DNA of 64,000 nucleotides from Patescibacteria group bacterium (lineage in GTDB: Bacteria > Patescibacteriota > Patescibacteriia > S139-126 > S139-133): assembly GCA_049604715.1 (NCBI GenBank), contig JBMYTV010000004.1, positions 22,535 through 86,534 on the forward strand, in the 5' to 3' direction. The notes below the pieces were generated by a model. The model was not told the DNA's origin, ran no database searches, and saw only the letters and a program-made list of their open reading frames with translations. The translations under genes and the position numbers were made by a program. Each line of letters opens with the position of its first letter. Position 1 is the stretch's first letter. This document shows, in pieces, positions 7,205 to 36,222 of this stretch.

Positions 7205-8329
7205 ATGAAGTATTCACTATCAAAATCATCTACTGTTTCTCAAGCACGCCGCGGCGTGCTTGAACTTTCGCATGGGAGTATAGAGGCGCCCTTTTTTATG
7301 CCTATTGCAACAAAGGGTGCTGTAAAGTCTATCACGACTACAGAGATGAGATTGCTAGGGGCACAGATTTTGCTCTCCAATACGTATCATCTATATCTTC
7401 GCCCTGGTACTGAAGTTTTGGACCAGGTGGGTGGACTACATACATTTATGGATTGGAAAGGACCCATTTTGACTGATTCGGGTGGTTTTCAGGTGTTCTC
7501 ACTGAGTGGTACTAAGTCACGCAAGGATAATCTAGTTAAAATATTTGATGATCGAGTAGAGTTTCAATCACATATTGATGGTTCAAAACATATATTTACA
7601 CCAGAAAAGGTACTTGATATTCAAAAGTCTATTGGTTCTGATGTAATGATGATTTTGGATGTGTGTACTGCTAACCCAGCAACACATGAACAGGCAATAC
7701 ATGACTTGGAGATCACAACTGCGTGGGCACGTCGAGCAAAAGAGCATTATGAAAAAGGAAGTTTTAAAGATCAATCAATGTTTGGTATTGTCCAAGGATC
7801 AACATATAGTGATTTGAGACAACAGTCAGCTCAAGATCTAGTAAGCTTGGATTTTGACGGATATGCTATTGGCGGTTTGGCTGTGGGAGAGTCTGAGGTG
7901 GATATGTACGCTATGCTTGATGTGACGACTCATCTTTTGCCTGAGGATGCGCCGCGGTATTTAATGGGAGTAGGAAAACCAGAGAATATTATAGAGGCAG
8001 TGAAGCGAGGTGTTGATATGTTTGATTGTGTTATTCCAACACGTGAGGCACGACATGGTCGTCTTTATCTTTGGCAGAACAAAGATGTAACAAAGCCTGG
8101 TTTTTATAAGACCGTTGCTATTACAAACGCATCATATGCTACTGACTTCACACCCCTGGTCGCTGACTCAAAAATTCCAGAACTACAAAATTTAACTAAA
8201 GCTTACTTGCATCATTTGTTTCGCACCTCAGAACCTTTAGCACTTCGTATTGCAAGTCTTATTAATATAGAATTTTATCTTACTCTTATGCAGCGTATTC
8301 GTGCTGCAATTGAAGCTGATCAACTGTAG
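7205..8329 (+). CDS. tgt: queuine tRNA-ribosyltransferase
   Basis: LLSNTYHLYLRPG, LTDSGGFQVFSL, GIVQGSTY, DGYAIGGLAVGE, MGVGKPENIIEAV, MFDCVIPTR; C-terminal CxCxxC zinc motif absent. Confidence 0.85.
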   Translation: MKYSLSKSSTVSQARRGVLELSHGSIEAPFFMPIATKGAVKSITTTEMRLLGAQILLSNTYHLYLRPGTEVLDQVGGLHTFMDWKGPILTDSGGFQVFSLSGTKSRKDNLVKIFDDRVEFQSHIDGSKHIFTPEKVLDIQKSIGSDVMMILDVCTANPATHEQAIHDLEITTAWARRAKEHYEKGSFKDQSMFGIVQGSTYSDLRQQSAQDLVSLDFDGYAIGGLAVGESEVDMYAMLDVTTHLLPEDAPRYLMGVGKPENIIEAVKRGVDMFDCVIPTREARHGRLYLWQNKDVTKPGFYKTVAITNASYATDFTPLVADSKIPELQNLTKAYLHHLFRTSEPLALRIASLINIEFYLTLMQRIRAAIEADQL

Positions 8330-22476: not shown

Positions 22477-22552
22477 GCCGTTGTAGCTCAGTTGGTAGAG
22501 CGCATCCATGGTAAGGATGAGGTCTCGGGTTCAAACCCCGACAACGGCTCCA
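22477..22552 (+). tRNA. tRNA-Thr (anticodon GGU)
   Basis: Cloverleaf folded by hand: acceptor GCCGTTG/CAACGGC, D-arm GCTC/GAGC, anticodon arm CATCC-ATGGTAA-GGATG, T-arm TCGGG-TTCAAAC-CCCGA, CCA encoded. Confidence 0.8.
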
Positions 22553-22556
22553 TTGG

Positions 22557-22642
22557 GGGTCGGTACCGAAGCGGTCAAACGGGGCAGACTGTAAATCTGC
22601 TGGCATACGCCTTCGTAGGTTCGAATCCTGCCCGGCCCACCA
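22557..22642 (+). tRNA. tRNA-Tyr (anticodon GUA), long variable arm
   Basis: Acceptor GGGTCGG/CCGGCCC (one G.U), anticodon arm GCAGA-CTGTAAA-TCTGC, long variable arm, T-loop TTCGAAT, CCA encoded. Confidence 0.75.
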
Positions 22643-22655
22643 TACCAAATATACT

Positions 22656-22731
22656 GCCACCCTAGCTCAGCTGGTAGAGCAACGGTTTTGTAAACCGTAG
22701 GTCATCGGTTCGAATCCGATGGGTGGCTCCA
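22656..22731 (+). tRNA. tRNA-Thr (anticodon UGU)
   Basis: Acceptor GCCACCC/GGGTGGC, anticodon arm ACGGT-TTTGTAA-ACCGT, T-arm ATCGG-TTCGAAT-CCGAT, CCA encoded. Confidence 0.8.
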
Positions 22732-22765
22732 CTTTCCCTTGCAATTTATAGTTAATCTAAGTGTT

Positions 22766-22951
22766 ATGTCACAAGACAACTTGATAAAGCTTGTATCTGA
22801 AGGTGATGATCAGGGCCGTGGGAAAGGTCATGTCATTCATACATTTAAGAACAAGAAGAATCGTGAACCACTTCGTATCAAAAAGCACAACCCTGAAGCA
22901 GGTGAAGAAGGTAAGGGTGCGCACACATGGTACAAAGAAGTTAAAAAATAA
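22766..22951 (+). CDS. rpmG: ribosomal protein L33-like, Cys-less (non-zinc) form
   Basis: HTFKNKKNREPLRIKKHNPEAGEEGKGAHTWYKEVKK matches the L33 pattern; no Cys pairs; start taken at the internal Met (MSQDN...). Confidence 0.45.
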   Translation: MSQDNLIKLVSEGDDQGRGKGHVIHTFKNKKNREPLRIKKHNPEAGEEGKGAHTWYKEVKK

Positions 22952-23349
22952 TGAATTATCGGCTTTTATTACTCATTGTATTAAGCGCCAGTGTATTATC
23001 TGGTTGCTTTAGTCTTGATAGTCTTGATAAGACAGTGATTGAAAAGAATAAAGAGTTATCAGAAAAAGCAGAGGAGCACGTCGGTGATGACATAGAGGCA
23101 GGTAAGGAGAGGATAAAAGAATATACCAAGCAGCAAATTGCAGGTATTGCTGAATCACTGACTGAGACGGCAAAGAATGAGATAGAGAACTGGCTTTTAG
23201 AAAATAGTCTTAATCAGTATGGTGATGCTGAAGGTACGATGTATACTGGCGGCACACCACTCTTTGATGAGGCTACTGGTGCGTCGCAAGATCGGTTTGA
23301 ATATATCTTAGAAAAGCACCCAGAGCTTATTGAGCAACTTGGATTATAA
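22951..23349 (+). CDS. lipoprotein, hypothetical
   Basis: Signal peptide with lipobox LSGC; acidic 132-aa protein. Confidence 0.5.
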   Translation: MNYRLLLLIVLSASVLSGCFSLDSLDKTVIEKNKELSEKAEEHVGDDIEAGKERIKEYTKQQIAGIAESLTETAKNEIENWLLENSLNQYGDAEGTMYTGGTPLFDEATGASQDRFEYILEKHPELIEQLGL

Positions 23350-23377
23350 ATACATGGGAGCGCCTGTAAAATGGCTA

Positions 23378-23405
23378 CATGTCACTCATGAGTGACAGCA
23401 CATAG
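23378..23405. repeat. small palindromic insertion 1, flanked by a TA duplication
   Basis: Core TGTCACTCATGAGTGACA is a perfect 18-nt palindrome; it interrupts GGCTA|TCACC relative to tRNA-Trp. Confidence 0.4.
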
Positions 23406-23420
23406 TATCACCACGGTCTC

Positions 23421-23444
23421 ACATGTCAGTCGTGACTGACATGT
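23421..23444. repeat. small palindromic insertion 2, flanked by a GTCTC duplication
   Basis: ACATGTCAGTC-GT-GACTGACATGT, an 11-bp-arm hairpin; it interrupts GGTCTC|CAAA relative to tRNA-Trp; shares CATGTCA...TGACATG with insertion 1. Confidence 0.4.
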
Positions 23445-23476
23445 GTCTCCAAAGCTAATTAAATGAGGAGGGGAAT

Positions 23477-23728
23477 ATGTTTTATGTATACGTATTGAAA
23501 GTAGAGGGAATCGCGAATAAAAGATACTATATAGGTTATACTGCAAATTTACAGCGTCGAGTAAGTGAACATCAAAAAGGGTTGGTAAAAACAACCAAAA
23601 ATAAAAAACCGCAACTGGTTTATTATGAAGCGTATAGCAATAAGTACTTAGCACTACGGCGTGAAAAAGGTTTGAAATCAAGCGGTTCAGTAAAAATGGC
23701 GCTTTATAAAAGATTAAAATTAGAATAG
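23477..23728 (+). CDS. small GIY-YIG nuclease-domain protein
   Basis: YVYVLKV...YYIGYTANLQRRVSEHQKG GIY-YIG motif; GGAGG RBS 7 nt upstream. Confidence 0.75.
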   Translation: MFYVYVLKVEGIANKRYYIGYTANLQRRVSEHQKGLVKTTKNKKPQLVYYEAYSNKYLALRREKGLKSSGSVKMALYKRLKLE

Positions 23729-23740
23729 TAAGTATATTAT

Positions 23741-23815
23741 GGGGGTGTAGTGAAATGGCTATCACCACGGTCTCCAAAACCGTTATTCTAGGTTCGAGTC
23801 CTAGCACCCCTGCCA
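23741..23815 (+). tRNA. tRNA-Trp (anticodon CCA)
   Basis: Acceptor GGGGGTG/CACCCCT (one G.U), D-arm GTGA/TCAC, anticodon arm ACGGT-CTCCAAA-ACCGT, T-arm CTAGG-TTCGAGT-CCTAG, CCA encoded. Confidence 0.85.
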
Positions 23816-24369: not shown

Positions 24370-25752
24370 ATGATAAAAAGATTTTTTATCATTTTGAATA
24401 TTCTAGGCAAATGGTATTGGCGTTCATTCATTAGAATACGCTCTGCTGATGATGTATCTAACCAAAAAAGAGCGCAGACACTTCGTGAATCACTTGAGCA
24501 TCTTGGCTCAGTTTTTGTGAAGTTTGGGCAGCTACTTGCCATGAGACCTGATATACTTTCTCGTGCTTACTGTCGAGAGCTTTTTTATTTACTTGATGAT
24601 GTTCCGCCTTTTTCATCAGAGATTATCAAAAGAACCATAGTAGAAGATTTTGGTAAGAGCCCAGAGTTTTTATTCGAATCATTTGACGAATCGCCAATTG
24701 CAGCAGCTTCCTTTGGTCAAGTCCATACAGCAGTTACTAGAGATAAAGAGAAAGTAGCAGTGAAAGTACAGCGACCCAATATAGAATTTATAGTAGAAAG
24801 AGATATAAAGTTGATGAAAGTTCTGGCACGAGTGATAGATGTGTTTCGAGTTGGGGTGAATAAGTTAGCTCCAATAGTTAAGGAATTTGAGATGTGGACC
24901 AGAGAAGAGCTTGATTATGAAGTTGAAGCAAATTACACACAAAGATTTCATAAGCAGACTTCGAGCGATGGCATTTATGCTCCTAAGGTGTATAAAGACT
25001 TATCATCCAAACGAGTTTTGACGGCTGAATATGTACCAGGAGCTGCTCTTAGTAAAATTTTAATAGCATATAGAGATCAAAACACAAAGACCATGGAACA
25101 GGTTGAGGACTGGGGATTTTCTCGAAAGGATGTGGCTTTCCAGTTGCTTCGCAATTCAACCAAGCAAATTTACCTTGAAGGCTTCTTTCATGCAGATCCC
25201 CATCCAGCAAATATTATCTTTACTCCTGAAAAGAAGCTCGTATACATTGATTTTGGAATTGTAGGGGAGCTTGGTAGGAGGGAGCGGCTAAAATGTCTCC
25301 GTTACACTAGGTCCGCTATGTATGGCGAGGAGGATCACTCTTTCGATGCGTTAGTTGAACTGTGTGATACAAGCAAGGTTAAGGACATGAATAAATTCAA
25401 GGAAGAGCATTCGGAAATAATTAGAAAAACTTTACAGATGTTCAACAAAGCTAAAGAGACAGGAACGTCTCAAATAGTAGGTAAGAAGTTAGTTGCTACA
25501 CTTCAGCTGCTTCAAAAGCATGGCGCTAGAATACAGACCAATACTATGAGATATTTCCGAACGCTACTCGCAGTAGATAGTTTGATTCTTGAGGTATACC
25601 CCGAAATGGAGCTTAAAGATATAGCACGGAGGTTTCGCAATGTCTCCATTGCAAATATAATTCAAGAATTACCAGATCATTTAGACGCCGAGACATTTGA
25701 AAAAGATATTCTTAAATGGTTGAGTATACTTGAAACCGAGTTGATTAAATAG
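24370..25752 (+). CDS. ABC1/UbiB-family atypical protein kinase
   Basis: FGQLLAMRPDIL, AAASFGQVHTA, KVQRP, FFHADPHPANI. Confidence 0.8.
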   Translation: MIKRFFIILNILGKWYWRSFIRIRSADDVSNQKRAQTLRESLEHLGSVFVKFGQLLAMRPDILSRAYCRELFYLLDDVPPFSSEIIKRTIVEDFGKSPEFLFESFDESPIAAASFGQVHTAVTRDKEKVAVKVQRPNIEFIVERDIKLMKVLARVIDVFRVGVNKLAPIVKEFEMWTREELDYEVEANYTQRFHKQTSSDGIYAPKVYKDLSSKRVLTAEYVPGAALSKILIAYRDQNTKTMEQVEDWGFSRKDVAFQLLRNSTKQIYLEGFFHADPHPANIIFTPEKKLVYIDFGIVGELGRRERLKCLRYTRSAMYGEEDHSFDALVELCDTSKVKDMNKFKEEHSEIIRKTLQMFNKAKETGTSQIVGKKLVATLQLLQKHGARIQTNTMRYFRTLLAVDSLILEVYPEMELKDIARRFRNVSIANIIQELPDHLDAETFEKDILKWLSILETELIK

Positions 25753-27031
25753 CGAGTTTAACTTTTCTATCCAACAAGGTTAACCGATTTCTCAGACAAG
25801 AGAGCAGTTCACGCTTCTCGACAATGTTTCCATTTGTAAGAATATATTTTGCATAATTTTTCATATCGGTTTCCTTGCTCAGTTTTGGTTTAGCTTCATC
25901 TAGCCCGAACACACTTTGTCTAAATTTGTAGTACCGTTCCACTTCTTGCTGGAGTTTGTTTTGTATCCCGAGTTTGTCAATAGTGAGTCTATCTATTAGC
26001 TCAAGTATTTGGTTTACCAAATTTTCTTCTCTTATATATAGTGCCTCACACTTCTTATCTCTCGATCTCGTACAGCCATAATATACATACCTATTCTTGG
26101 TTCCGTCTTTACGATACTTAAACTTTTCTTGCGCTGTAATGCCGGATCCACACTTTCCACAAACCATGAGTCTGGTAAAAGCAAACTCTTTGCTACGATA
26201 CTGAAACTCGTGATGTACTTTTATCTGTGCTTGCACTTGATCGAACAGTTCTTTTGAAACTAGAGGAGTATGTATGCCTGTATACCAGTTACCACTTTTT
26301 CTAGGATATTCAAATACTCCGTAGTAGAAGGTGTTTTTGAGTATGATATAGATATTACTGAGTGATAAATGTTTTCCGTTTTTAGTTTTGAAGTTTATTT
26401 CATCTCTGAGCCAGTAAAACAACTTCCTGCCGCTCCATTTTTCGTGTGCTACTTTTTCAAACATTTGCTTGATAATATGCCCTCGTTCCGGGTCTACCAT
26501 CATATGACATTTCCTATCACTACGTTTCTCATTTAGATACCCCGTAGGAGCAACTCCTGGTCGCAAACCCATTTCTGCTTTTGCTTTCATGCCTCTTTTA
26601 ACGTTAAGACCTCTATTATCATTCTCAAGCTTCGCTTGACTACCAAGAATCATCAGTAGAAACTTCTCATTAGGGGAGTTAGTAAATGTTTGCCCGTACG
26701 TTCTGATCTCTAGAAGATGCTTTCTATCCATGAGGTCGACCACAGATCCCAAATCCCCAGCATTACGAGCTAGTCTATCAGGCGCCCATGTCAGTATTCC
26801 GTTGAATTGGCCTTTGCCAATATCTACTAGTAGCTGGTTGTATACTGGTCGCTTACCGGACTCTTTGGCTGAATGTGCCTCTTGTCTTATTTCAACTACA
26901 TTCAGGTTTTCTCGTTTTGCCAGAGTGGTCATTTCCTTGATCTGTGAATCAATGGAAAGGGCTTGTTTTTCATCACTCTCGCTTGATTTACGAGCATACA
27001 AACAGTACTTAATTTGGGGTTGTTCAGTCAT
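25745..27031 (-). CDS. large serine recombinase (integrase/resolvase family)
   Basis: N-terminal catalytic YARKSSESDEKQALSIDSQ, recombinase domain, Cys4 zinc ribbon CGKCGS...YYGC...KKCEA, C-terminal coiled coil; 428 aa; convergent 8-bp overlap with the kinase gene. Confidence 0.85.
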   Translation of the reverse strand: MTEQPQIKYCLYARKSSESDEKQALSIDSQIKEMTTLAKRENLNVVEIRQEAHSAKESGKRPVYNQLLVDIGKGQFNGILTWAPDRLARNAGDLGSVVDLMDRKHLLEIRTYGQTFTNSPNEKFLLMILGSQAKLENDNRGLNVKRGMKAKAEMGLRPGVAPTGYLNEKRSDRKCHMMVDPERGHIIKQMFEKVAHEKWSGRKLFYWLRDEINFKTKNGKHLSLSNIYIILKNTFYYGVFEYPRKSGNWYTGIHTPLVSKELFDQVQAQIKVHHEFQYRSKEFAFTRLMVCGKCGSGITAQEKFKYRKDGTKNRYVYYGCTRSRDKKCEALYIREENLVNQILELIDRLTIDKLGIQNKLQQEVERYYKFRQSVFGLDEAKPKLSKETDMKNYAKYILTNGNIVEKRELLSCLRNRLTLLDRKVKLAI

Positions 27032-27102
27032 ACTATTTTGGTTAGTTATTAATTTCTAACCACATTGATGACGCAACCCTGCTAGTGAGTCCAGGATACT
27101 TG

Positions 27103-27122
27103 AGTCGATAAACTGTTGGTAA
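27103..27122. repeat. 20-bp direct repeat, copy A (AGTCGATAAACTGTTGGTAA)
   Basis: 19/20 identical to 37704-37723; lies 72 bp upstream of the recombinase start. Confidence 0.5.
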
Positions 27123-27172
27123 GTTTTAAGCCTTGATGTGGGTTATCAATCTGTCCCTTGTAACTATTTCAT

Positions 27173-27201
27173 TCGACAAATAGCATTGTTTTGACTATAA
27201 T
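27173..27201 (+). promoter_or_regulatory. sigma70-like promoter candidate
   Basis: TCGACA, 17-nt spacer, TATAAT; 28 nt upstream of the 27230 ATG. Confidence 0.4.
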
Positions 27202-27229
27202 GTTAAACAACTCATCAAAGTAGAAATAT

Positions 27230-27880
27230 ATGTTTAATAACAAAACCAAATCACAATTTAAGAAACTGACCATACTCTCAACAGTAGTTGCTGGGATACT
27301 ACATGTAACTTTGGCTTCTTCTCAGCACTCTGCAATACCACCAGAGATGGTTTTCTTTATTTTGGCAGGACTAGCACAGGTTGCTTGGGCGATTGTTTTC
27401 ATGAAGAAACAATCTGATGTGATGTACTACTTTGGCATAGTTATTAATGGTGGCTTATTGGTTGTCTGGGCACTTACTCGTATTTTACCTGCACCATTTT
27501 TAAACGAACCTGAGCATATAGGTACGCTGGATCTAATCATAGCGTTGATCGAAGGGTTAGCAATCTTCACTTTGGTTGTATGGCATGAAAAAGTAAGCCA
27601 TTTACCATCTTTGGTAGTCCGCTTTTCATTAGCAGCTTTGATAGCTTTGGTAATCGGATTTTTTGGATATTATTCAAGCATGGCTGCTACTAGATTTTTT
27701 CCAGATATAGAGGTGGTTGATCACCATGGGGTTGAAATAGGTGATAAACATGCAGATGATGGCCACGATAATGAGAACGAGGTTGACGAAATGCATGAAG
27801 TTGTGGATAATAAAGCTGATTCTACACAGGAGGTAGGGGATGATCAGAGGCATGATGATACAGATGATCATCATGATTAA
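27230..27880 (+). CDS. polytopic membrane protein with His/Asp-rich C-terminal tail (putative metal-binding)
   Basis: 5-6 TM helices; tail HHGVEIGDKHADDGHDNENEVDEMHEV...QRHDDTDDHHD. Confidence 0.45.
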   Translation: MFNNKTKSQFKKLTILSTVVAGILHVTLASSQHSAIPPEMVFFILAGLAQVAWAIVFMKKQSDVMYYFGIVINGGLLVVWALTRILPAPFLNEPEHIGTLDLIIALIEGLAIFTLVVWHEKVSHLPSLVVRFSLAALIALVIGFFGYYSSMAATRFFPDIEVVDHHGVEIGDKHADDGHDNENEVDEMHEVVDNKADSTQEVGDDQRHDDTDDHHD

Positions 27881-27887
27881 TATTCAT

Positions 27888-28304
27888 ATGGCAAGTAAAA
27901 ATACCTACAATTTATACGGTATCGCATTGACTGCTTGTTTTATATTGGCAGCGATTATATTACCTATGTGCCAGACGTACATGATGGATCATGCTAATAT
28001 GGCGCATACAGAACAGGCACAATGCTGTGGTGCTGACGAGTCAAATAGCGAGCTGGTCGCAGCTCATCACATTGCTTACTTCAAGACAATGTATAATGGG
28101 TTAGCAAGTAAGGGCACATTCGCTTTACTTCTTGGATTGGCAGCTTTATTTTTCGTATCGGCATTCCTGGTCTGGTCGCGTAAAGATTTCTCTCATGTAT
28201 TTCAACGGTTAGAACACCATTCAAAACTACCAGAGATACCACTGTGGAATTTTCTACAGATGGCGTATGCTCAAGGGATAGTTCAGAGTAAGCACTTGGA
28301 TTAA
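27888..28304 (+). CDS. membrane protein, hypothetical
   Basis: 2-3 TM helices; CC pair; start taken at the internal ATG after the previous stop. Confidence 0.4.
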   Translation: MASKNTYNLYGIALTACFILAAIILPMCQTYMMDHANMAHTEQAQCCGADESNSELVAAHHIAYFKTMYNGLASKGTFALLLGLAALFFVSAFLVWSRKDFSHVFQRLEHHSKLPEIPLWNFLQMAYAQGIVQSKHLD

Positions 28305-28379
28305 CAATATACGTTCACGTTTTTTAGTTGTGTCAGTTTTTTTGCTGATACACATCTTTATTAATCTAACGTAACGTAT

Positions 28380-29153
28380 ATGGACAAACCAAGTGTTTTT
28401 GACGTTATAGGGCCTGGGAAAACCTTTGGTCTCGGTATCGTCACTGCGATCCTCATAATTTGTACTATTGGATTTTTCGTTCTTTTGAGCGGTAAGTTCG
28501 ACGGCACAGCTACAGCCAAAAGTACAGATACCACTCAAGTAGTAAAAACTGGAACTCAACCAACGCCAACACAACCAACCGCACCACAGCCTGCAGGAAC
28601 TGGTGAAATACAATTAGCAGCTGTCACTGAAAGTGATTGGGTAAAAGGAAACCGTAATGCAAAAATCAGCATTGTGGAGTTTTCTGATACAGAATGTCCT
28701 TTTTGTAAACGATTCCACCCAACCATGCAGCAAGTCATTGATACGTATGGTGATGATGTGAATTGGGTCTATCGGCATTTTCCGCTAGATTCTCTTCATC
28801 CAACTGCACGTAAGGAAGCAGAAGCTACTGAATGTGCAGGTGAACTTGCTGGCAATGATGGTTTCTGGGCATATCTTGATCGATTGTTTGAAGTTACTCC
28901 ATCAAATAATGGTTTACAGCTTTCACAACTCCCGCAAATTGCTGAAGATGTAGGAATTAATAGAGCAAAGTTTGAAGAGTGTCTTGATTCAGGAAGGCAC
29001 GCTAATGCGGTACAAGAAGAATATCAGCAGGCCGTAGCTGCCGGAGGAAGAGGTACTCCTTATTCAGTATTGGTGGTTGGTGATGAAAATATACCAGTTT
29101 CAGGTGCAGTGCCATTTGAACAGTTGAAATCAATTATTGATTCTCAATTATAA
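28380..29153 (+). CDS. DsbA-like thiol:disulfide oxidoreductase, membrane-anchored
   Basis: N-terminal TM, Pro/Thr-rich linker, thioredoxin-fold active site CPFC. Confidence 0.75.
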   Translation: MDKPSVFDVIGPGKTFGLGIVTAILIICTIGFFVLLSGKFDGTATAKSTDTTQVVKTGTQPTPTQPTAPQPAGTGEIQLAAVTESDWVKGNRNAKISIVEFSDTECPFCKRFHPTMQQVIDTYGDDVNWVYRHFPLDSLHPTARKEAEATECAGELAGNDGFWAYLDRLFEVTPSNNGLQLSQLPQIAEDVGINRAKFEECLDSGRHANAVQEEYQQAVAAGGRGTPYSVLVVGDENIPVSGAVPFEQLKSIIDSQL

Positions 29154-29162
29154 ACTTAAGAG

Positions 29163-29738
29163 ATGATGAAGAAATACATTTCACAAGTAGTAACTGCAAT
29201 GAAGCAAGTATTTAGTACGTGGCAGTACTGGTTAGTAAGTCTTGGAGTGGCAGCAATGATAGTTCTGATAACAATTTTGCTTTCACAATACCAATTCATT
29301 GCTACCATTCTTGATTCAGAGCTGTTTGATTCAAAAGTGAAATTCAAAGCAATACTCAGTTCTTTGGGATCTTTCCAAACTAATTTGACGCTAGAAGATC
29401 AAGTCTTTGCTGTGGCCATAGCATTACTTTCGGGAGTTACTATGGCAATTGTTGTGTATTACTTTAAGCATAGATTTTCCCTTCAAATGGCAACTGGTAC
29501 GAGCTTTTTGGGAGTCTTGGTTGGATTGTTTGGTGTGGGATGTTCTGCGTGCGGATCGGTAGTTGTTTCTACTATTTTTGGAATCGGAGCAGCAAGTGCT
29601 TTTTTAGGAGCATTGCCATTCAAAGGAACTGAGATAAGTATATTGAGCATACTGATATTACTTGGCTCAATATACATGATTGCAAAGAAAATAGTTTCAC
29701 CAGATGTGTGTGAAATAAAACCTTCTTCATCGTCTTGA
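29163..29738 (+). CDS. membrane protein with Cys-rich motif, hypothetical
   Basis: 4 TM helices; GVGCSACGS motif. Confidence 0.4.
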   Translation: MMKKYISQVVTAMKQVFSTWQYWLVSLGVAAMIVLITILLSQYQFIATILDSELFDSKVKFKAILSSLGSFQTNLTLEDQVFAVAIALLSGVTMAIVVYYFKHRFSLQMATGTSFLGVLVGLFGVGCSACGSVVVSTIFGIGAASAFLGALPFKGTEISILSILILLGSIYMIAKKIVSPDVCEIKPSSSS

Positions 29739-29759
29739 GACACTTTAAAGACGAATTAT

Positions 29760-30581
29760 ATGAAAAATAAGAAATACTTTATTGGAGGAATAGTAGTCCT
29801 TGTGCTTATCATTGGCGCTTTTATGTTAGGTAAAGGTGAGACCAATGAAGCGCAGGCACAGGGCAAGTTAGAAGTAGCTGAAACACATTATGACTTTGGT
29901 ACAATTGGTCTTGATAATGTAACCCATCCTTTTACTGTGAAGAATATTGGTGCAGGACCTCTAACCATTGAACGAGTATCAACATCATGTGGCTGCACTA
30001 CAGCCCAACTTAAGCAGGGTAGCAAAACCAGTGTTCAGTTTGGTATGGACCATGGAAATTTGCCAAAGGCCAACATGACCTTGCAGCCAGGCGAAGAAAC
30101 CGAAGTATTAGTGACATATAACCCACTAGCACATGGATTAAATAACGCAGCAGGACATTTTCGCAGAATTGTTTATATTCAGACCAGTAATCCTAAAGAA
30201 GAACATGAACTCATAGTTGAGATGACGGTTGATCCTGATAAAAAAACAGCACAGGAAGCTCAAATAGAATTTGATAAGCAGTCGTATGACTTTGGTCAAA
30301 TTCCAAAAGAGGGTGGTGTAGTAGAAACGACATTCACTGTATTTAATCGGGGTGGAGAAAGTCTGGCTATCAGTGATATCACCACTTCATGTGGGTGTAC
30401 TAGTGCGGAAATTGCATCAGAAAATATCCGGCCTAATGGTTCTACTAAACTAACTGTTCGGTTTGATCCTGATTTTCACGATGAACCACAAGGCAAGCTA
30501 GAGAGAATAGTCACGCTATTTACCAATGACCCAGAAAACCCTGAGGCTAATGTAGAAATATATGCTGAAATTATTGAATAA
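29760..30581 (+). CDS. DUF1573-like repeat protein (two CGC-containing beta domains), membrane-anchored
   Basis: Duplicated YDFG...STSCGCTTAQ / YDFGQ...TTSCGCTSAE modules. Confidence 0.55.
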   Translation: MKNKKYFIGGIVVLVLIIGAFMLGKGETNEAQAQGKLEVAETHYDFGTIGLDNVTHPFTVKNIGAGPLTIERVSTSCGCTTAQLKQGSKTSVQFGMDHGNLPKANMTLQPGEETEVLVTYNPLAHGLNNAAGHFRRIVYIQTSNPKEEHELIVEMTVDPDKKTAQEAQIEFDKQSYDFGQIPKEGGVVETTFTVFNRGGESLAISDITTSCGCTSAEIASENIRPNGSTKLTVRFDPDFHDEPQGKLERIVTLFTNDPENPEANVEIYAEIIE

Positions 30582-31785
30582 GCTCATAGTCTTTGTCGGT
30601 ATTGGCTTTTTGTTGGCGACCCCTGCTTTTGTTTCTGCTCAACAATCATTTTCTTCAGCTGAAGTTTATTACAACGAAGCATGTGGTGGGTGTAATGTCT
30701 ATTTGCAGGAAAAGTTAATCCCATATCTTGAAGAGCAGGGGTTAGTCGTAGAAATGCATGATTATGTAAACGACAAACAGGCTCGTAAAGACATGAATGC
30801 ATTTCAGGAACGTCTTGGAATTCCGTATGAGCTGCAAAGCCATATCATGACCTTTGTTGATAATGGAAAGTTGGTAATTGGTGGTCATGTGCCACTGGAA
30901 AGGGTAGAGGAGCTGTTTGCTGCAGGTGCATTACCTGACCAACTTGTAGTGTACCAAGATCAGATGCTTGAAATGGGGATCAACCCTGATACGGTGTCGT
31001 ACACGATTTGGCAACCTGATGTTGAAGTAAAAGAGTATGAATTAAATGAACCACTAACTACTTATTTGAGTGAGTGGGAAGTAGGGTCCCTGCAGCCAAG
31101 TAAATGGCAAGAAAAATCATTGTTACCGTTGGTACTGACGACCGGGTTGGTAGACGGATTGAATCCATGTGCATTTGCAGTACTGCTATTTTTTATAGCG
31201 TTCCTGTATTCAATCAGACGGTCGACCAGGCAAGTTTGGTTGATGGGCGCAACGTATATTGCTGGAATTTATCTGATTTATCTCAGTATTGGTCTTGGGT
31301 TATTTCAAGCAGTTACCATTTCCAGTCAACCTCACTTTATTGCTAAAGTGGCAGCGTGGTTAATTATTGGATTAGGTGGTTTGACGGTAACACAACATTT
31401 GTTCCCGCAGTTACCATTTAGATTTCGATTACCATCTTTTTCCAAAGTCACCATTAAAGAATGGCTAACAAAAGCTACCTTACCAGCCAGCTTTATTGCT
31501 GGTGTGATAGTGGGGTTGTGCACATTTCCGTGCTCAGGAGGGATTTATGTAGCAGTTGTGAGTATGTTGACTACGCAGAGTACGTTTGCGAAAGGATTAG
31601 GCTACTTAGCTGTGTACAATGTGATGTTTGTGGTACCACTTATTGCCATTTTGCTCGCGGTTGGGAATAAAAAGTCAGTTGAAAAGGTTGAAACATGGGA
31701 AAAGAAAAAAGCCGGGATGTTCAAATTAATCAGTGGTGTAGTTATGGTTTTGTTGGGACTTAGCATTTTGATTTGGTTTGTTTGA
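30562..31785 (+). CDS. thioredoxin-like domain fused to a CcdA/DsbD-type transmembrane thiol-disulfide transporter
   Basis: N-terminal CGGC; TM core with LNPCAFAVLLFF and TFPCSGG motifs. Confidence 0.7.
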   Translation: MLKLLNKLIVFVGIGFLLATPAFVSAQQSFSSAEVYYNEACGGCNVYLQEKLIPYLEEQGLVVEMHDYVNDKQARKDMNAFQERLGIPYELQSHIMTFVDNGKLVIGGHVPLERVEELFAAGALPDQLVVYQDQMLEMGINPDTVSYTIWQPDVEVKEYELNEPLTTYLSEWEVGSLQPSKWQEKSLLPLVLTTGLVDGLNPCAFAVLLFFIAFLYSIRRSTRQVWLMGATYIAGIYLIYLSIGLGLFQAVTISSQPHFIAKVAAWLIIGLGGLTVTQHLFPQLPFRFRLPSFSKVTIKEWLTKATLPASFIAGVIVGLCTFPCSGGIYVAVVSMLTTQSTFAKGLGYLAVYNVMFVVPLIAILLAVGNKKSVEKVETWEKKKAGMFKLISGVVMVLLGLSILIWFV

Positions 31786-32236
31786 TGATAACTATATGAC
31801 AGTTGTATTTATTTCACTAACAGTCATACTGGCAATTTACTTCATCATAGCCTTTTCTCCACTTAAGGTGTGTGCGATTTGTTCTGCGGTGAGCATGACA
31901 TGGCTTGGCTTGTTGTTAACGTATATGCTTGGCATGCATGAAGAGATAGTTTGGTTGGGAGTACTCATGGGGGGAAGTGTAGTTGGATTGATGTACAAGC
32001 TTGATAGTTACTGGAAAGAGAAAAAGTATTCAGGTACATGGCTGCTCAAACTAACAATTATTGTGTTTGGTTTTTTGACCGTCTATGTAGTCGTGAACAC
32101 ACTGTGGACAGATTTTTTCTGGCTTGTGCCATCCATGGTTGTTGTGAGCACGATCGGGGTCATGCTTCTCAGAAGTAATAAGGAAGACAATGTATCTTCA
32201 AAATTACAAAGTAAACTTGATCATTGTTGTGATTAA
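31778..32236 (+). CDS. membrane protein, hypothetical
   Basis: 4 TM helices; CAICS motif. Confidence 0.35.
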   Translation: MFDDNYMTVVFISLTVILAIYFIIAFSPLKVCAICSAVSMTWLGLLLTYMLGMHEEIVWLGVLMGGSVVGLMYKLDSYWKEKKYSGTWLLKLTIIVFGFLTVYVVVNTLWTDFFWLVPSMVVVSTIGVMLLRSNKEDNVSSKLQSKLDHCCD

Positions 32237-32255
32237 GAATGTAATCTACTGAACT

Positions 32256-32528
32256 ATGGTAACAAAAGACCAAACAAATAAAGAAAAAGCACTTGATAGT
32301 ATTGGATGCGCCAAAGCCAAAGTAAGTAAGATGTTGGTTATGATTGAACACAATGATGATGTGATGACGATAATCCATGAGTCAGAAGCTACCAGACGGG
32401 CATTAAAACGTGCTGACCGCATGATCATCAAACGACATCTGGAGAAAGTTGCGTATGAACAACGTGGTCATACGGGCCAAGCCACTGCACGGGAGTTATT
32501 ATCGTTACTCAAATTTTGGCTAGATTGA
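32256..32528 (+). CDS. CsoR/RcnR-family (DUF156) metal-sensing transcriptional repressor-like
   Basis: 90-aa helical protein with conserved Cys (IGCAK) and His (IIHES) positions in the CsoR-like pattern; heads the copper operon. Confidence 0.45.
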   Translation: MVTKDQTNKEKALDSIGCAKAKVSKMLVMIEHNDDVMTIIHESEATRRALKRADRMIIKRHLEKVAYEQRGHTGQATARELLSLLKFWLD

Positions 32529-32552
32529 TTACTAACCTTAAATAGCTATGTT

Positions 32553-33134
32553 ATGAATTTCAAATTACTAATTATTTTGCTGCTCATCATAGGCGGACTC
32601 GGTGTGCTCTGGTCAGTTAGTAGTTTCTTTAGTAGTAAAGGAAATGATAAGTTGGTTCAAAATCAGGAGAACTTTGAGCGAGCAATAAATGCTGAACTCC
32701 CTGATAAGTGTCAGACACCTGTAGGGTATACTAATGATGAATGGCTGGGACATATGTCGCATCATCCAGATAGGTATCAAGAATGTTTGCAGGAAGTTGA
32801 TCTGGATGCTATAGCACGTAAAGATATAGGTTCACAAGATCTGGCATTAATGCTTGAACAAAAAGACTTTGTGTTAATTGATACTCATATTCCAGAGCAA
32901 AAACACATTCCCGGAACTGACGTGTTTATTTCTTTTAACGAAATTACAGACCAACTTTCGCAGTTGCCTCAGGATAAGAATGCAAAGATCGTATTATATT
33001 GCCGTAGCGGCAATATGAGTGAGCGCGCTTCTCAGGATTTGATTGAGCTGGGTTACACCAATGTATACAATTTAGTTGGTGGAACAAATGCTTGGCAACA
33101 GGCTGGTTACTTGGTTGAGGATGTTTCACTATAA
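32553..33134 (+). CDS. rhodanese-domain sulfurtransferase, membrane-anchored
   Basis: Active-site loop YCRSGNMS; NLVGGTNAWQQAGY. Confidence 0.75.
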   Translation: MNFKLLIILLLIIGGLGVLWSVSSFFSSKGNDKLVQNQENFERAINAELPDKCQTPVGYTNDEWLGHMSHHPDRYQECLQEVDLDAIARKDIGSQDLALMLEQKDFVLIDTHIPEQKHIPGTDVFISFNEITDQLSQLPQDKNAKIVLYCRSGNMSERASQDLIELGYTNVYNLVGGTNAWQQAGYLVEDVSL

Positions 33135-33139
33135 TAGGC

Positions 33140-33592
33140 ATGAAAAAAGAACTTAGAAACAAAGCTTTATTGTGGGGAGTTATAGCAATACTTGGTATGA
33201 CATTGTTTTATATAGTGATCATGTTACTAACCATGTCACCCAGTGAAGCTTGGTTAAATTTTATTAGCCTCTGGCACTATATCGTAGGAATTATTGTTGG
33301 TTTTGGAATACAGGTTGGATTGTGGGTATATATAAAGAACTGTGGTAAGAGTAGCGCTCATGGAGCAATGCCAGGAGCAAGTGGCACCATGTCTGGCACG
33401 GCCATGGTTGCGTGTTGTGCGCATCATTTAACAGAAGTATTGCCAGTATTTGGGTTAACTGGAGCGACTATATTTCTTACGCAGTATCAAAAACCCTTTC
33501 TCATACTCGGTGTATCAATTAATATTCTTGGTATTGCATATATGCTTCAAATCCTACAGAAGCACCAAAAAATAACTATTAACAGTGAATAA
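33140..33592 (+). CDS. membrane protein with CC-HH motif, hypothetical
   Basis: 4 TM helices; MVACCAHH. Confidence 0.35.
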   Translation: MKKELRNKALLWGVIAILGMTLFYIVIMLLTMSPSEAWLNFISLWHYIVGIIVGFGIQVGLWVYIKNCGKSSAHGAMPGASGTMSGTAMVACCAHHLTEVLPVFGLTGATIFLTQYQKPFLILGVSINILGIAYMLQILQKHQKITINSE

Positions 33593-33983
33593 TTGTATGT
33601 CCAACTACGGATATTCCAAACGATTACAAGTTTCTTTTGATGAAGCGGTTGAACGAGCAGTAACTGCACTCAAAGAGCAAGGGTTTGGTATACTGACAGA
33701 TATAGACGTAAAGGAGACATTGAAGAAAAAATTAGACGTGGATTTTAAACAGTATCGCATTTTAGGAGCATGCAATCCACCTCAAGCGTATAAGGCATTG
33801 CAGTTAGAGGAAGAGCTTGGCTTGTTGTTGCCGTGTAATGTGATTGTGTATGAAAAAGATAGTGATGTAATAGTGTCTGCTTTAAAGCCGAGCGTTGCGT
33901 TCACAATTGTAGAAAATACACAACTTGAGTCAGTAGCTTCAGAGGTTGAACAAATATTAAAACAAGTGATTGATAACGTATAA
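33585..33983 (+). CDS. DUF302-family protein
   Basis: [25 protein letters not shown]...ILGACNP pattern. Confidence 0.5.
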
Positions 33984-36222
33984 AAATATGGCAAAGAAAA
34001 TACAACTAAATATTGAAGGAATGCATTGTGCGTCGTGTGTTGCACATATTGAAGGAGACCTTAAGAAAAAAGAGGGTGTTAAAAGCGCACGAGTCAATTT
34101 TGCAACTGAAACAGGGCAAGTTGAATTTGATGAATCACAGGTTAGCCAAGAAGACATTGTCCAGACAATAAAAAAGACTGGTTATAGCGCAACTCCTTTG
34201 GAAGAACCGTCACATGCTCATCATACGGAACATGGCCATGACAATTCTCATGACCATTCAGCTAGTTCTGGGCAGGATCATTCTGCTCACGCAAGTGCTG
34301 AAAGTGACCGTCAGGTAAAGGACAGGTTGAAGAAAGTAGTTATCGCAGGGGTATCGACTATAGGCATTCTTATTTTGATGGCGGTGCATATCGAGAACGG
34401 GATGTTTATCATGCTGTTGCTTTCATTAGGCGCTCTCTGGGCTGGACAAGAGTTTTTCAAAGTTGGATTTCCGGCACTACTGCGGGGTAGGCCAGATATG
34501 AATACATTGGTTGCACTTGGTGTAACAGCTGCCTTTTTATACTCAACCTACGCAACATTGTTCAATCCAGAACTTGGCGAATACTTTATGGACGTTGGTA
34601 TCATTACTACGTTTATTTTACTTGGACGCTACTTGGAAGCGCGGGCAAAAGGAAAGGCTTCAGAAGCAATTAAAAAGTTATTACAGTTATCTGCCAAAGT
34701 TGCACATAAAGTCGTGCGAGAAAATACAACACAAGATATTCCAGTTGATCAGGTTCAAAAAGGTGATGTGTTGCTCGTCAAGCCAGGAGAGAAAATTCCA
34801 GTTGATGGTGAAATAGTAAAAGGTACCGCAACGGTTGACGAATCAATGGTCACTGGCGAAAGTATTCCAGTTGATAAAAAGGAGAAAGATCAGGTGATAG
34901 GCGCTACTATCAATGGAAATCAGACATTTACTATGAAAGCTCGGAAAGTTGGTTCTGAAACAGTGCTCGCTCATATAGTGAAGCTAGTGCAAGAAGCTCA
35001 AATGTCCAGGGCACCAATACAAAAGCTGGTTGATAAAGTTTCAAAGTATTTTGTCTGGGGAGTGATCATCATAGCTATTGCTACGCTTGCAGGATGGATT
35101 AGTTTTTCAGGCGAAGCAGCACGCGCTTTGATTTACACTGTTGCTGTCCTGATTATTGCCTGCCCCTGCGCTTTAGGTCTGGCAACTCCAATATCTATTG
35201 TAGTTGGTACTGGTCGCGGTGCGTCTTTGGGTATTTTGATTAAAAATGCTGAGGCTCTTGAGAAAATGCATAAAATAACAGTGGTTGCTTTTGATAAAAC
35301 TGGAACAATTACTAAAGGACATCCAGAAGTGCAAGAATGGGTACAGATAAGCAAAGATGCTGATGCGTTACTTCCGGCAGCGCTATCTCTCGAGTCTCAG
35401 TCAGAACACCCACTGGCCAAAAGTATTGTGGACTGGTTTGCTAAGGAGAAGAATGCACTAAAACCATACAACCTTTCTGAGGTTAAGGCAGTCACAGGTA
35501 AAGGTATTGAGGGTAAAGATGAGAATAAAATCTATCGAGTTGGTAGCATAAAGTTTTTATTAGAAAGCAAAGTTACTGTTACTAAAGAGAACAAAAACAA
35601 CATTGAGACCTATGCACAAAAAGGACATACCATCATAGGCTTTGCCAAAGATGGGGAATTGGTAGGTTTCTTTGCTGTTCAGGATGGGCTCAAGGAATCT
35701 TCTGTTGAAGCTATTACTATTCTCAAAAACAGAGGCATCAAAACAGTTATGCTAACAGGAGATAATGAGGCAGTGGCAAAAGAAATAGCTCGTCAGGTGG
35801 GTATTGATGAGGTTAGGGCTGAAGTCATGCCAGAGGATAAAGTGAGCGTTATCAAAGAACTGCAAGACAAGGGTGAATTTGTAGCAATGGTCGGTGATGG
35901 TATTAACGATTCACCGGCACTTGCACAAGCGAATGTCGGTATTGCTATGGGTACAGGAACTGATGTTGCAGTAGAGACAGGAGACGTTGTGTTGGTTAAG
36001 GGTGATCTTATGAAAGCAGCTGAAGCAATCGGTCTATCTGAGGCTACACTTAAAAACATTAAGCAAAATCTTTTTTGGGCTTTTATATACAATACAGTTG
36101 GTATCCCGATTGCGGCTTTGGGATTCTTAAGCCCAGCGTTCAGTGCTGCTGCTATGGCTTTTAGCAGTATTTCAGTTGTATTAAATGCTTTGCGGTTAAA
36201 GAAGGTTAAGATGACAAAATAA
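33970..36222 (+). CDS. copA: copper-translocating P1B-type ATPase
   Basis: [11 protein letters not shown], His-rich linker, [30 protein letters not shown]. Confidence 0.9.

Follow-up and report, generated by a model that had tools for sequence, protein, structure and literature searches.

A probable mobile GIY-YIG nuclease cassette with a truncated tRNA-Trp copy and small palindromes in Patescibacteria

Introduction

Mitochondrial mobile endonuclease open reading frames (mORFs; Allomyces atp6 and Glomus atp6, atp9, cox2 and nad3) carry a replacement piece of their host gene, and the foreign origin of one host-gene copy has been shown (PMC3630166). T4 SegB is a free-standing GIY-YIG homing endonuclease in a phage tRNA gene cluster; its site includes a conserved tRNA stem-loop (T-psi-C), and it drives the inheritance of itself and the neighbouring tRNA genes (PMC2330249). 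For the hairpin elements of organelles (yeast mitochondrial GC clusters, Allomyces double-hairpin elements and the sponge repetitive hairpin elements, RHEs), putative target duplications and a proposed trans-acting endonuclease are on record (PMC4478555, PMC2800124). Here we describe a locus in 64,000 nt of a Patescibacteria group bacterium (GenBank assembly GCA_049604715.1, contig JBMYTV010000004.1, positions 22,535 to 86,534 of the forward strand), a stretch that we call the window and in whose numbering we give coordinates. The locus consists of a gene for an 83-aa GIY-YIG nuclease that lies between a truncated, palindrome-bearing copy of tRNA-Trp and an intact tRNA-Trp. We think it fairly probable that this is a selfish GIY-YIG cassette with a specialisation for tRNA genes, one that is or at least once was mobile and that belongs to a type widespread in Patescibacteria (Candidate Phyla Radiation, CPR).

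Judged by analogy, mORFs appear to be the closest functional counterparts of this cassette. Both have a free-standing endonuclease gene (GIY-YIG in some mORFs) in an essential gene, part of which is duplicated, so that one copy is complete and the displaced part is a pseudo-fragment. The locus differs from mORFs in its bacterial chromosomal tRNA host, in the duplication of usually the 5' part, in the bare 83-aa YhbQ/UPF0213 domain and in the palindromes at the break. With SegB it shares a GIY-YIG nuclease gene among tRNA genes, but SegB is larger, multi-domain and phage-encoded, has a 27-bp recognition site and comes with no partial tRNA duplications or palindromes. With the organellar elements it shares tiny GC-rich hairpins in AT-rich genomes and target duplications; in contrast to these and to repetitive extragenic palindromic (REP) hairpins, the palindromes here are perfect, 22-26 nt long, have a TCGCGA centre and 4-5-nt duplications and prefer tRNA-gene loops and ends. 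Genes for REP-associated tyrosine transposases (RAYTs) have their REPs on either side, much as palindromes flank the GIY-YIG genes here; the likeness is by analogy only, and the flanked gene is a GIY-YIG gene and not an IS200/IS605-type Y1 (HUH) transposase gene. The window region is one instance of what is apparently an undescribed, widespread, tRNA-gene-associated GIY-YIG cassette with cognate mini-palindromes in CPR bacteria; we found no paper on GIY-YIG genes with tRNA fragments or on these palindromes in CPR bacteria, in a literature coverage that was incomplete and leaves a prior description possible.

Results and discussion

The GIY-YIG gene lies between a truncated and an intact tRNA-Trp

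The nuclease gene occupies 23477..23728 on the plus strand (ATG at 23477) and encodes only a catalytic domain, apparently of the UPF0213/YhbQ type. An intact tRNA-Trp (CCA; 23741..23815, plus strand) begins 12 nt past its stop codon; it was found by ARAGORN, scores 62 bits with the Rfam tRNA model and is presumably the functional gene. Upstream of the nuclease gene is a truncated copy of the same tRNA (23356..23453, plus strand), which covers positions 1 to ~38 and contains two palindromic insertions. Between position 1 and the 3' side of the anticodon loop, this fragment is collinear with tRNA-Trp over three matching blocks, namely GTAAAATGGCTA at 23366-23377 against GTGAAATGGCTA of the intact gene (11/12), TATCACCACGGTCTC at 23406-23420 (15/15) and GTCTCCAAA at 23445-23453 (9/9). 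The exact 15-mer TATCACCACGGTCTC is present at only two places in the 64 kb, the fragment and the intact tRNA-Trp. Directly past the anticodon loop, at 23453, the similarity to the tRNA stops, and the ribosome-binding site GAGGAGGGG (23465..23473, plus strand; read from the sequence) and the ATG of the nuclease gene follow.

The gaps between the three blocks are two related palindromic insertions, not random decay. The fragment's D-loop contains a degenerate one (23378..23405, no strand assigned), with the core palindrome TGTCACTCATGAGTGACA at 23380-23397. The other is a 24-nt mini-element, ACATGTCAGTCGTGACTGACATGT, in the anticodon loop (23421..23444, likewise strandless), and it is flanked by a target duplication: the left GTCTC is at the anticodon stem/loop junction (23416..23420, plus strand), and the right GTCTC (23445..23449, plus strand) leads on to the remaining part of the anticodon loop (CCAAA to 23453). 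Excising 24 + 5 nt from this site gives back the exact tRNA sequence GGTCTCCAAA.

The original prediction, made from the letters of the window, had placed the GIY-YIG gene between a degenerate half-copy of tRNA-Trp, which started at the D-loop and diverged right after the anticodon loop where the ribosome-binding site and ATG begin, and an intact tRNA-Trp 12 nt past the ORF stop. The order of parts, the point of divergence and the spacing are all as it described. The true start of the copy is instead tRNA position 1, at 23356 (GGGAGCGCC...). The first ~12 nt of the copy have indeed diverged, but its degenerate look is mostly due to the two palindromes that interrupt it. These palindromes, which that prediction did not describe, are what sets the locus apart most.

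The arrangement recurs across Patescibacteria

We compared 94 non-redundant related GIY-YIG genes, nearly all from Patescibacteria and including a scan of one genome per species (80 more loci). A tRNA gene on the same strand was within 400 nt of the ORF for 73 of these 94 genes and within 60 nt downstream for 48. The dominant host was tRNA-Trp, and tRNAs for Glu, Gln, Ser, Asn, Cys, Thr, Gly, Leu and Tyr were also found. With a partial copy defined as at least 12 nt of exact 8-mers of the same tRNA within the 200 nt before the ORF, a partial copy of the downstream tRNA preceded the ORF in 32 of the 48 loci, compared with 2 of 41 control segments. This copy is often 100% identical over 30-35 nt and ends in the anticodon loop, and the break points of the fragments coincide with palindromes. 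Among the 31 tRNA-Trp loci, a palindrome plus CCAAA was located 3-33 nt before the ATG in 14 by a strict automated criterion and in ~20 by eye. For example, a Moranbacteria contig with 64% protein identity has rpmG (ribosomal protein L33), the tRNA-Trp 5' part, GGTCTC, ACCCGTCAGTCGCGACTGACGGGT, GTCTCCAAAACC and the ATG, in that order; relative to the window palindrome, CC/GG is replaced by AT/AT, which is a compensatory change.

The tRNA parts are also found in other orders. In L002, L006, L012, L013 and L057 (locus handles), the tRNA 3' part is downstream of the intact tRNA and has the same palindrome in its anticodon loop, and in L023, L027 and L085 the intact tRNA is followed by the ORF and then by a palindrome-bearing tRNA 3' part. 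A 5-kb locus can contain two to three copies. In L033 and L058, the fragment is closer to the tRNA-Trp of other lineages (36/41) than to its own neighbour (27/41 and 31/41, respectively). Fragment and neighbouring tRNA are different alleles at these two loci, whereas the intact tRNA of the window is that of a relative that has no cassette (L214). The fragment may be the native half of the tRNA, displaced, or a part that moves along with the cassette, and on this choice the window and these two loci disagree. As a separate observation, L020 has two tandem GIY-YIG genes before one tRNA-Trp (2501-3161), each with its own tRNA fragment and with differing palindrome classes.

Nuclease subfamily, palindrome type and break position change together

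Clustering of the GIY-YIG homologues by protein gave four groups, across which the nuclease subfamily, the palindrome type and the position of the break change together. In the clade of the window (Trp), tRNA-Trp is downstream and the anticodon loop bears the TCGCGA palindrome. In the Ser/Asn/Gln clade, the tRNA is upstream and the CCA end bears a CCATG palindrome (CCATGCACC..GGTGCATGG) that comes with a duplication of CGGAG or CTCCG. Double short hairpins accompany tRNA-Glu in the Glu clade, and the non-CPR cluster (Paracoccus, Pararhizobium, cyanobacteria and Deferribacter) has neither tRNA nor palindrome. The second palindrome class, CCATGCACCATATGGTGCATGG, is found at the tRNA 3' end with the CGGAG or CTCCG duplication, and its own CCA restores the tRNA end.

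A second GIY-YIG subfamily, 40% identical, lies between tRNA-Tyr and tRNA-Thr in L009 (100-445) and L025 (1535-1900), and a long imperfect palindrome of another kind (CCCCGTGATAATTTGCG...CGAATTATTTTACGGGG) stands before it.

The cassette is present or absent at a fixed site among syntenic relatives

Local gene order in the window starts with tRNA-Thr, tRNA-Tyr and tRNA-Thr (22477-22731). These are followed on the plus strand by rpmG (22739..22951), a weak Pfam PF00471 match that is the conserved upstream anchor of the locus, and by a 132-aa lipoprotein-like ORF (22951..23349). Using this ORF as the query, we found syntenic relatives in three groups (L213, L214/L215 and L216/L217), which have in common the order TIM-TPR-tRNA Thr/Tyr/Thr-rpmG-ORF134-tRNA-Trp; rpmG is also 5' of the cassette or of tRNA-Trp in L002, L007 and L213-L216. 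In these cassette-less relatives, homologues of the 132-aa ORF (45-64% identity) stand directly before tRNA-Trp, which begins 12-35 nt past the ORF, and L213-L217 contain no GIY-YIG gene (hmmsearch, E ≤ 10) and no half copy of tRNA-Trp. The tRNA-Trp of L214 is identical to the intact gene of the window (75/75). The GIY-YIG gene is polymorphic for presence and absence at one fixed site. Judged against the rpmG-ORF-tRNA-Trp order in close relatives, the cassette is an insertion, and its later loss also occurs.

In L214, the spacer AAAGATTGAGATTAAAATAAAATAT corresponds to the 3' terminus of the nuclease ORF (...KRLxLK, stop) and the spacer after it (23/25 against L009). The remnant is at 2904-2931 in L214 and at 960-987 in L215, retains the last ~20 nt of the ORF and, among 217 loci, has a pattern seen only in the L214/L215 spacer and at true ORF ends. 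Hence, this lineage once had the cassette and lost it by deletion. The first GIY-YIG gene of L020 has an in-frame stop, and in L107, a locus that contains no GIY-YIG gene, an intact tRNA-Trp stands before a 3' pseudo-copy of tRNA-Trp that bears a palindrome (574-760). Together with the L214 remnant, these loci look like stages in the cycle of gain, decay and loss that selfish nuclease genes go through.

The palindromes behave as insertions

Three features give the palindromes the behaviour of inserted elements: target duplications, copies that stand alone, and nesting. If 24 nt is taken as the length of the element, 40% of 91 distinct copies have a direct repeat of 4 nt or more on their two sides, compared with 5.7% with permuted flanks; the repeats include GTCTC, TCCA, TTGA, TAAA, CCTG, TCAA and CTAA. 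In L013 the fragment and the intact tRNA, which is a paralogous empty site, differ by exactly 29 nt, the 24 nt of the element plus the duplicated GTCTC. Insertion sites are tRNA D-, anticodon- and T-loops, tRNA ends, a TTGACA box and AT-rich spacers. Palindromes also lie in the apex of other palindromes (L010 and L016), and solitary copies carry 4-5-nt target duplications in contexts beyond GIY-YIG loci.

The element of the window, ACATGTCAGTCGTGACTGACATGT, is an AT-shifted member of the family with the consensus ACCCGTCnnTCGCGAnnGACGGGT. As single-stranded DNA it folds into a hairpin of -11.2 kcal/mol (z -4.5). The D-loop palindrome is 86% identical to it and has a weak DNA fold (z -1.0), and D-loop palindromes are found at the equivalent place in L009, L012, L019, L065 and L070. 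The two window palindromes can pair with each other around the 15-nt tRNA-identical block. Across 41 distinct 26-mers (consensus nACCCGTCnnTCGCGAnnGACGGGTn), positions 2:25, 7:20, 9:18 and 10:17 vary yet stay complementary. Among the mismatches in these 41 palindromes, G-T is not overrepresented, which gives no reason to prefer a constraint at the RNA level to one at the DNA level.

A GC-rich palindrome was within 120 nt upstream of 49 of the 94 ORFs, against a background of 0.023 per 120 nt. In the GIY-YIG loci, 41 class-1 copies were within 400 nt of the ORF and 3 were farther away. In L025, L026 and L028, two palindromes stand directly before the ATG, with no tRNA fragment there.

Two other identities were considered for these palindromes and set aside. 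The 24-nt element has no further copy in the 64-kb window, so it is not a dispersed repeat of this stretch. A bridge-RNA-like or guide-RNA-like leader is disfavoured by an unexceptional RNA fold (z -1.7), by the single palindrome that most related loci have, and by flanks that are plain tRNA with target duplications.

We also noted some unusual palindromes. In L162 (12896-12930, minus strand), a class-1 palindrome with a CAGG duplication is inserted at position 7/8 of tRNA-Tyr, where the terminal GGG of the element plus CAGG rebuilds the acceptor 5' strand and leaves tRNA-Tyr intact. In L078 (~2390-2495) and L084 (~1940-2045), the tRNA-Trp fragment has an insert of ~110 nt where the 24-nt palindrome is expected; it has the paired ends CCAGCC..TGGTC ... 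GACCA..GCTGG and the conserved core GCCG.TAGGCGCCT.CGGCT. Rfam gave nothing at this insert, which may be a larger member of the palindrome family or a structured RNA. At 7240-7263 of the window there is a perfect 24-nt GC-rich palindrome, TCAAGCACGCCGCGGCGTGCTTGA, in this AT-rich genome; its sequence is unrelated to the tRNA-linked palindromes.

The nuclease is predicted to be a minimal GIY-YIG protein

An exact match to the 83-aa protein is annotated in a Patescibacteria metagenome-assembled genome. The protein matches PF01541 with 47.4 bits (cut-off 22.6; E 2.4e-12), its residues 1-68 aligning with profile positions 1-70 of 78. All 12 aligned sequences share Y5, Y18, G20, R28, H32 and E51; from what we know of the family, we take the invariant Tyr (GIY), Tyr-x-Gly, Arg, His and Glu to be the catalytic positions. 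Profile searches matched PDB 1zg2 (E 4.6e-11), PDB 1ywl (E 5.9e-8) and, weakly, SLX1 (E 1.3e-3). In sequence family, size and catalytic residues the protein resembles SLX1 and the UPF0213/YhbQ proteins BH0048 (1zg2) and EF2693 (1ywl), and its single domain fits the minimal GIY-YIG proteins of that family (~80-110 aa); its sequence thus predicts a YhbQ/UPF0213-type minimal GIY-YIG. It differs from the non-CPR members recovered in that those are not beside tRNAs or palindromes. To our knowledge, no cellular role has been established for the UPF0213/YhbQ family. The GIY-YIG domain takes up 68 of the 83 residues and is the only Pfam domain found; no NCBIfam or PADLOC model matched the protein, and the 64-kb window has no second GIY-YIG. 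Since it is without a DNA-binding domain, the protein is not a homing endonuclease of the Tev/Seg type; the original prediction had spoken of a homing-endonuclease-type gene.

A promoter scan found no plus-strand promoter-like site between the 132-aa ORF and the nuclease gene. Hence, a promoter of its own is unsupported, and expression of the nuclease ORF probably comes from read-through in the tRNA operon. Phage-borne spread was considered and rejected: viral contigs contained only distant relatives of the protein (at most 42% identity), and the palindrome matches there are chance matches in high-GC sequence.

Origin of the cassette

If the region is a selfish cassette, its parts would be a minimal GIY-YIG gene on the strand of the tRNA and directly 5' of the functional tRNA-Trp, and a truncated copy of the same tRNA with 24-nt palindromes and their target duplications in its loops. 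The nuclease would cut tRNA-gene DNA at or near loop-encoding positions. It would probably recognise a hairpin or cruciform structure, or its cognate palindrome, because it has no DNA-binding domain and is related to the structure-specific SLX1. Repair from a cassette-bearing copy, with the conserved tRNA sequence as homology, would then introduce a copy of the nuclease gene. Selection would retain a product only if it has one complete tRNA, so a truncated copy would be left beside that tRNA. The palindromes may be cis sites of the nuclease, non-autonomous mini-elements that it mobilises, or both. The original prediction had expected this footprint if a GIY-YIG gene entered the anticodon-loop region and duplication then restored a complete tRNA. 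A GIY-YIG gene tied to a break in that region, with one complete tRNA kept, is indeed what the arrangement shows. The footprint recurs in many independent lineages and is absent from the syntenic relatives; the relatives that do have the gene carry a partial copy as well, and the similarity is collinear with the tRNA.

Several points weigh against a selfish mobile cassette. The tRNA fragment ends vary among loci and we found no single junction rule, so recombination or repair fits better than precise transposition. The protein tree has host-clade structure; hence, much of the inheritance may be vertical, and mobility rare or ancient. The intact tRNA-Trp has the same anticodon-loop sequence as the broken copy and would somehow have to escape cutting. 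A bare catalytic domain, as predicted from the sequence, makes sequence-specific homing of the I-TevI or SegB kind unlikely. Double-sided changes in the palindromes (92 observed against 31.7 in shuffles) come from a set that was chosen as palindromic, which inflates the pairing percentage. Lastly, among the 75 palindromic matches listed from metagenome contigs, 16 were within 500 nt of a GIY-YIG gene and 59 were not. Hence, the link between palindrome and nuclease is an association, and the palindrome also exists as a solitary repeat.

These 59 matches count in favour of the rival that we take most seriously, though we still consider it unlikely: the palindromes would be an independent REP-like dispersed repeat that serves as a terminator or as an RNA-stabilising hairpin and gathers in dispensable tRNA debris, and the nuclease would spread or persist on its own. 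Several solitary copies have A-runs and T-runs like bidirectional terminators, and the pseudo-copy of L107 bears a palindrome with no nuclease gene. However, the copy in the window is followed by no T-run, palindromes are enriched more than 20-fold just upstream of the ORFs, the class-1 copies in GIY-YIG loci crowd around the ORF (41 against 3), palindrome class tracks nuclease subfamily, and the paired palindromes before the ATG in L025, L026 and L028 have no tRNA fragment in which to gather. Less probable again is that the protein is an ordinary YhbQ/UPF0213 housekeeping enzyme of CPR tRNA operons (e.g. for nucleic-acid repair or processing), with fragments and hairpins as debris of local duplication and slippage. 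The original prediction had raised a YhbQ-like housekeeping nuclease, and by sequence the protein does belong to UPF0213; moreover, the ORF is always near the tRNA and on its strand, which suggests co-transcription, and the protein tree follows host clades in part. The housekeeping role itself fares less well. The CPR clades are tRNA-linked and patchy, whereas the non-CPR family members are not tRNA-linked; the closest syntenic relatives are without the gene, one of them with an ORF remnant only; and pseudogene copies exist. Several different tRNAs serve as hosts, each with a matching partial copy, two to three copies are possible per 5-kb locus, and the fragments break at palindromes.

The other two alternatives have far lower probability. 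Integration of a genomic island with tRNA-Trp as the attachment site, leaving a partial tRNA repeat, was offered by the original prediction as an alternative, and a serine recombinase gene (25745-27031, minus strand) with cargo-like genes (DsbA-like, rhodanese and copper P-type ATPase) is indeed just downstream of the tRNA. We regard such a remnant as very improbable: the repeat is the 5' part of the tRNA, lies upstream and encloses only a 252-nt ORF, the 25-mer at the tRNA 3' end has no second copy in the 64 kb (up to 3 mismatches), and no recombinase lies near this footprint in related loci. To an intron, either group I or archaeal-type bulge-helix-bulge, with the ORF and hairpins removed at the RNA level, we give hardly any credence. 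The break is in the anticodon loop, the classic tRNA-intron position, and hairpins flank it, but with a complete tRNA, free of interruptions, just downstream there is no need for splicing. The window contains no 3' half that would match the upstream fragment, and the palindromes have DNA-level target duplications. The Rfam check for group I intron structure around the ORF found no intron family at permissive thresholds, only tRNAs, both in the window region (E up to 10) and in four related loci (E up to 0.1).

Beyond the favoured reading of a selfish tRNA-gene cassette, we tentatively propose, as a possibility that we hold to be less likely, that the palindromes are autonomous-looking 'nano' transposable elements mobilised in trans by minimal 80-90-aa GIY-YIG nucleases that would recognise hairpin or cruciform DNA. 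Nuclease and palindromes would then be a bacterial mobile element of a new class, with the loops and ends of tRNA genes as its insertion sites. Were this true, elements of 22-26 nt would be among the smallest known, they would survive by regenerating or duplicating the tRNA, and they would be a GIY-YIG counterpart of the REP/RAYT partnership, so far in CPR bacteria only. A true link between palindrome and nuclease would in itself mean a very small new pair of nuclease and cis site and a new type of miniature transposable element.

CPR genomes are ~1 Mb with single-copy tRNA genes, and a selfish element that lives inside such genes yet spares its host would show how mobile DNA persists in minimal genomes. 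The loops of tRNA genes and the 24-nt palindrome are the first concrete substrate candidates for the YhbQ/UPF0213 GIY-YIG family. In addition, both tRNA annotation and the assembly of CPR genomes can be led astray by such tRNA fragments and palindromes.

Neighbouring genes and further tRNA debris

The recombinase gene 3' of tRNA-Trp is a large one, and the genes beside it (25745-36222) encode an RHH protein, an ABC1 kinase, DsbA-like and DsbD-like proteins, a rhodanese and a copper-type P-type ATPase. The recombinase and these cargo-like genes may be an integrated island. The usual neighbours 3' of tRNA-Trp are secE and nusG, which are not downstream of it in the window.

Further tRNA debris is found 3' of tRNA-Trp and its terminator in L009 (1320-1490), L025 (~2990-3180) and L216 (3060-3080), all three of which have a T-arm copy in inverted orientation. 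About 150 nt past it, L009 and L025 also have a copy of the tRNA 3' end in direct orientation, likewise debris.

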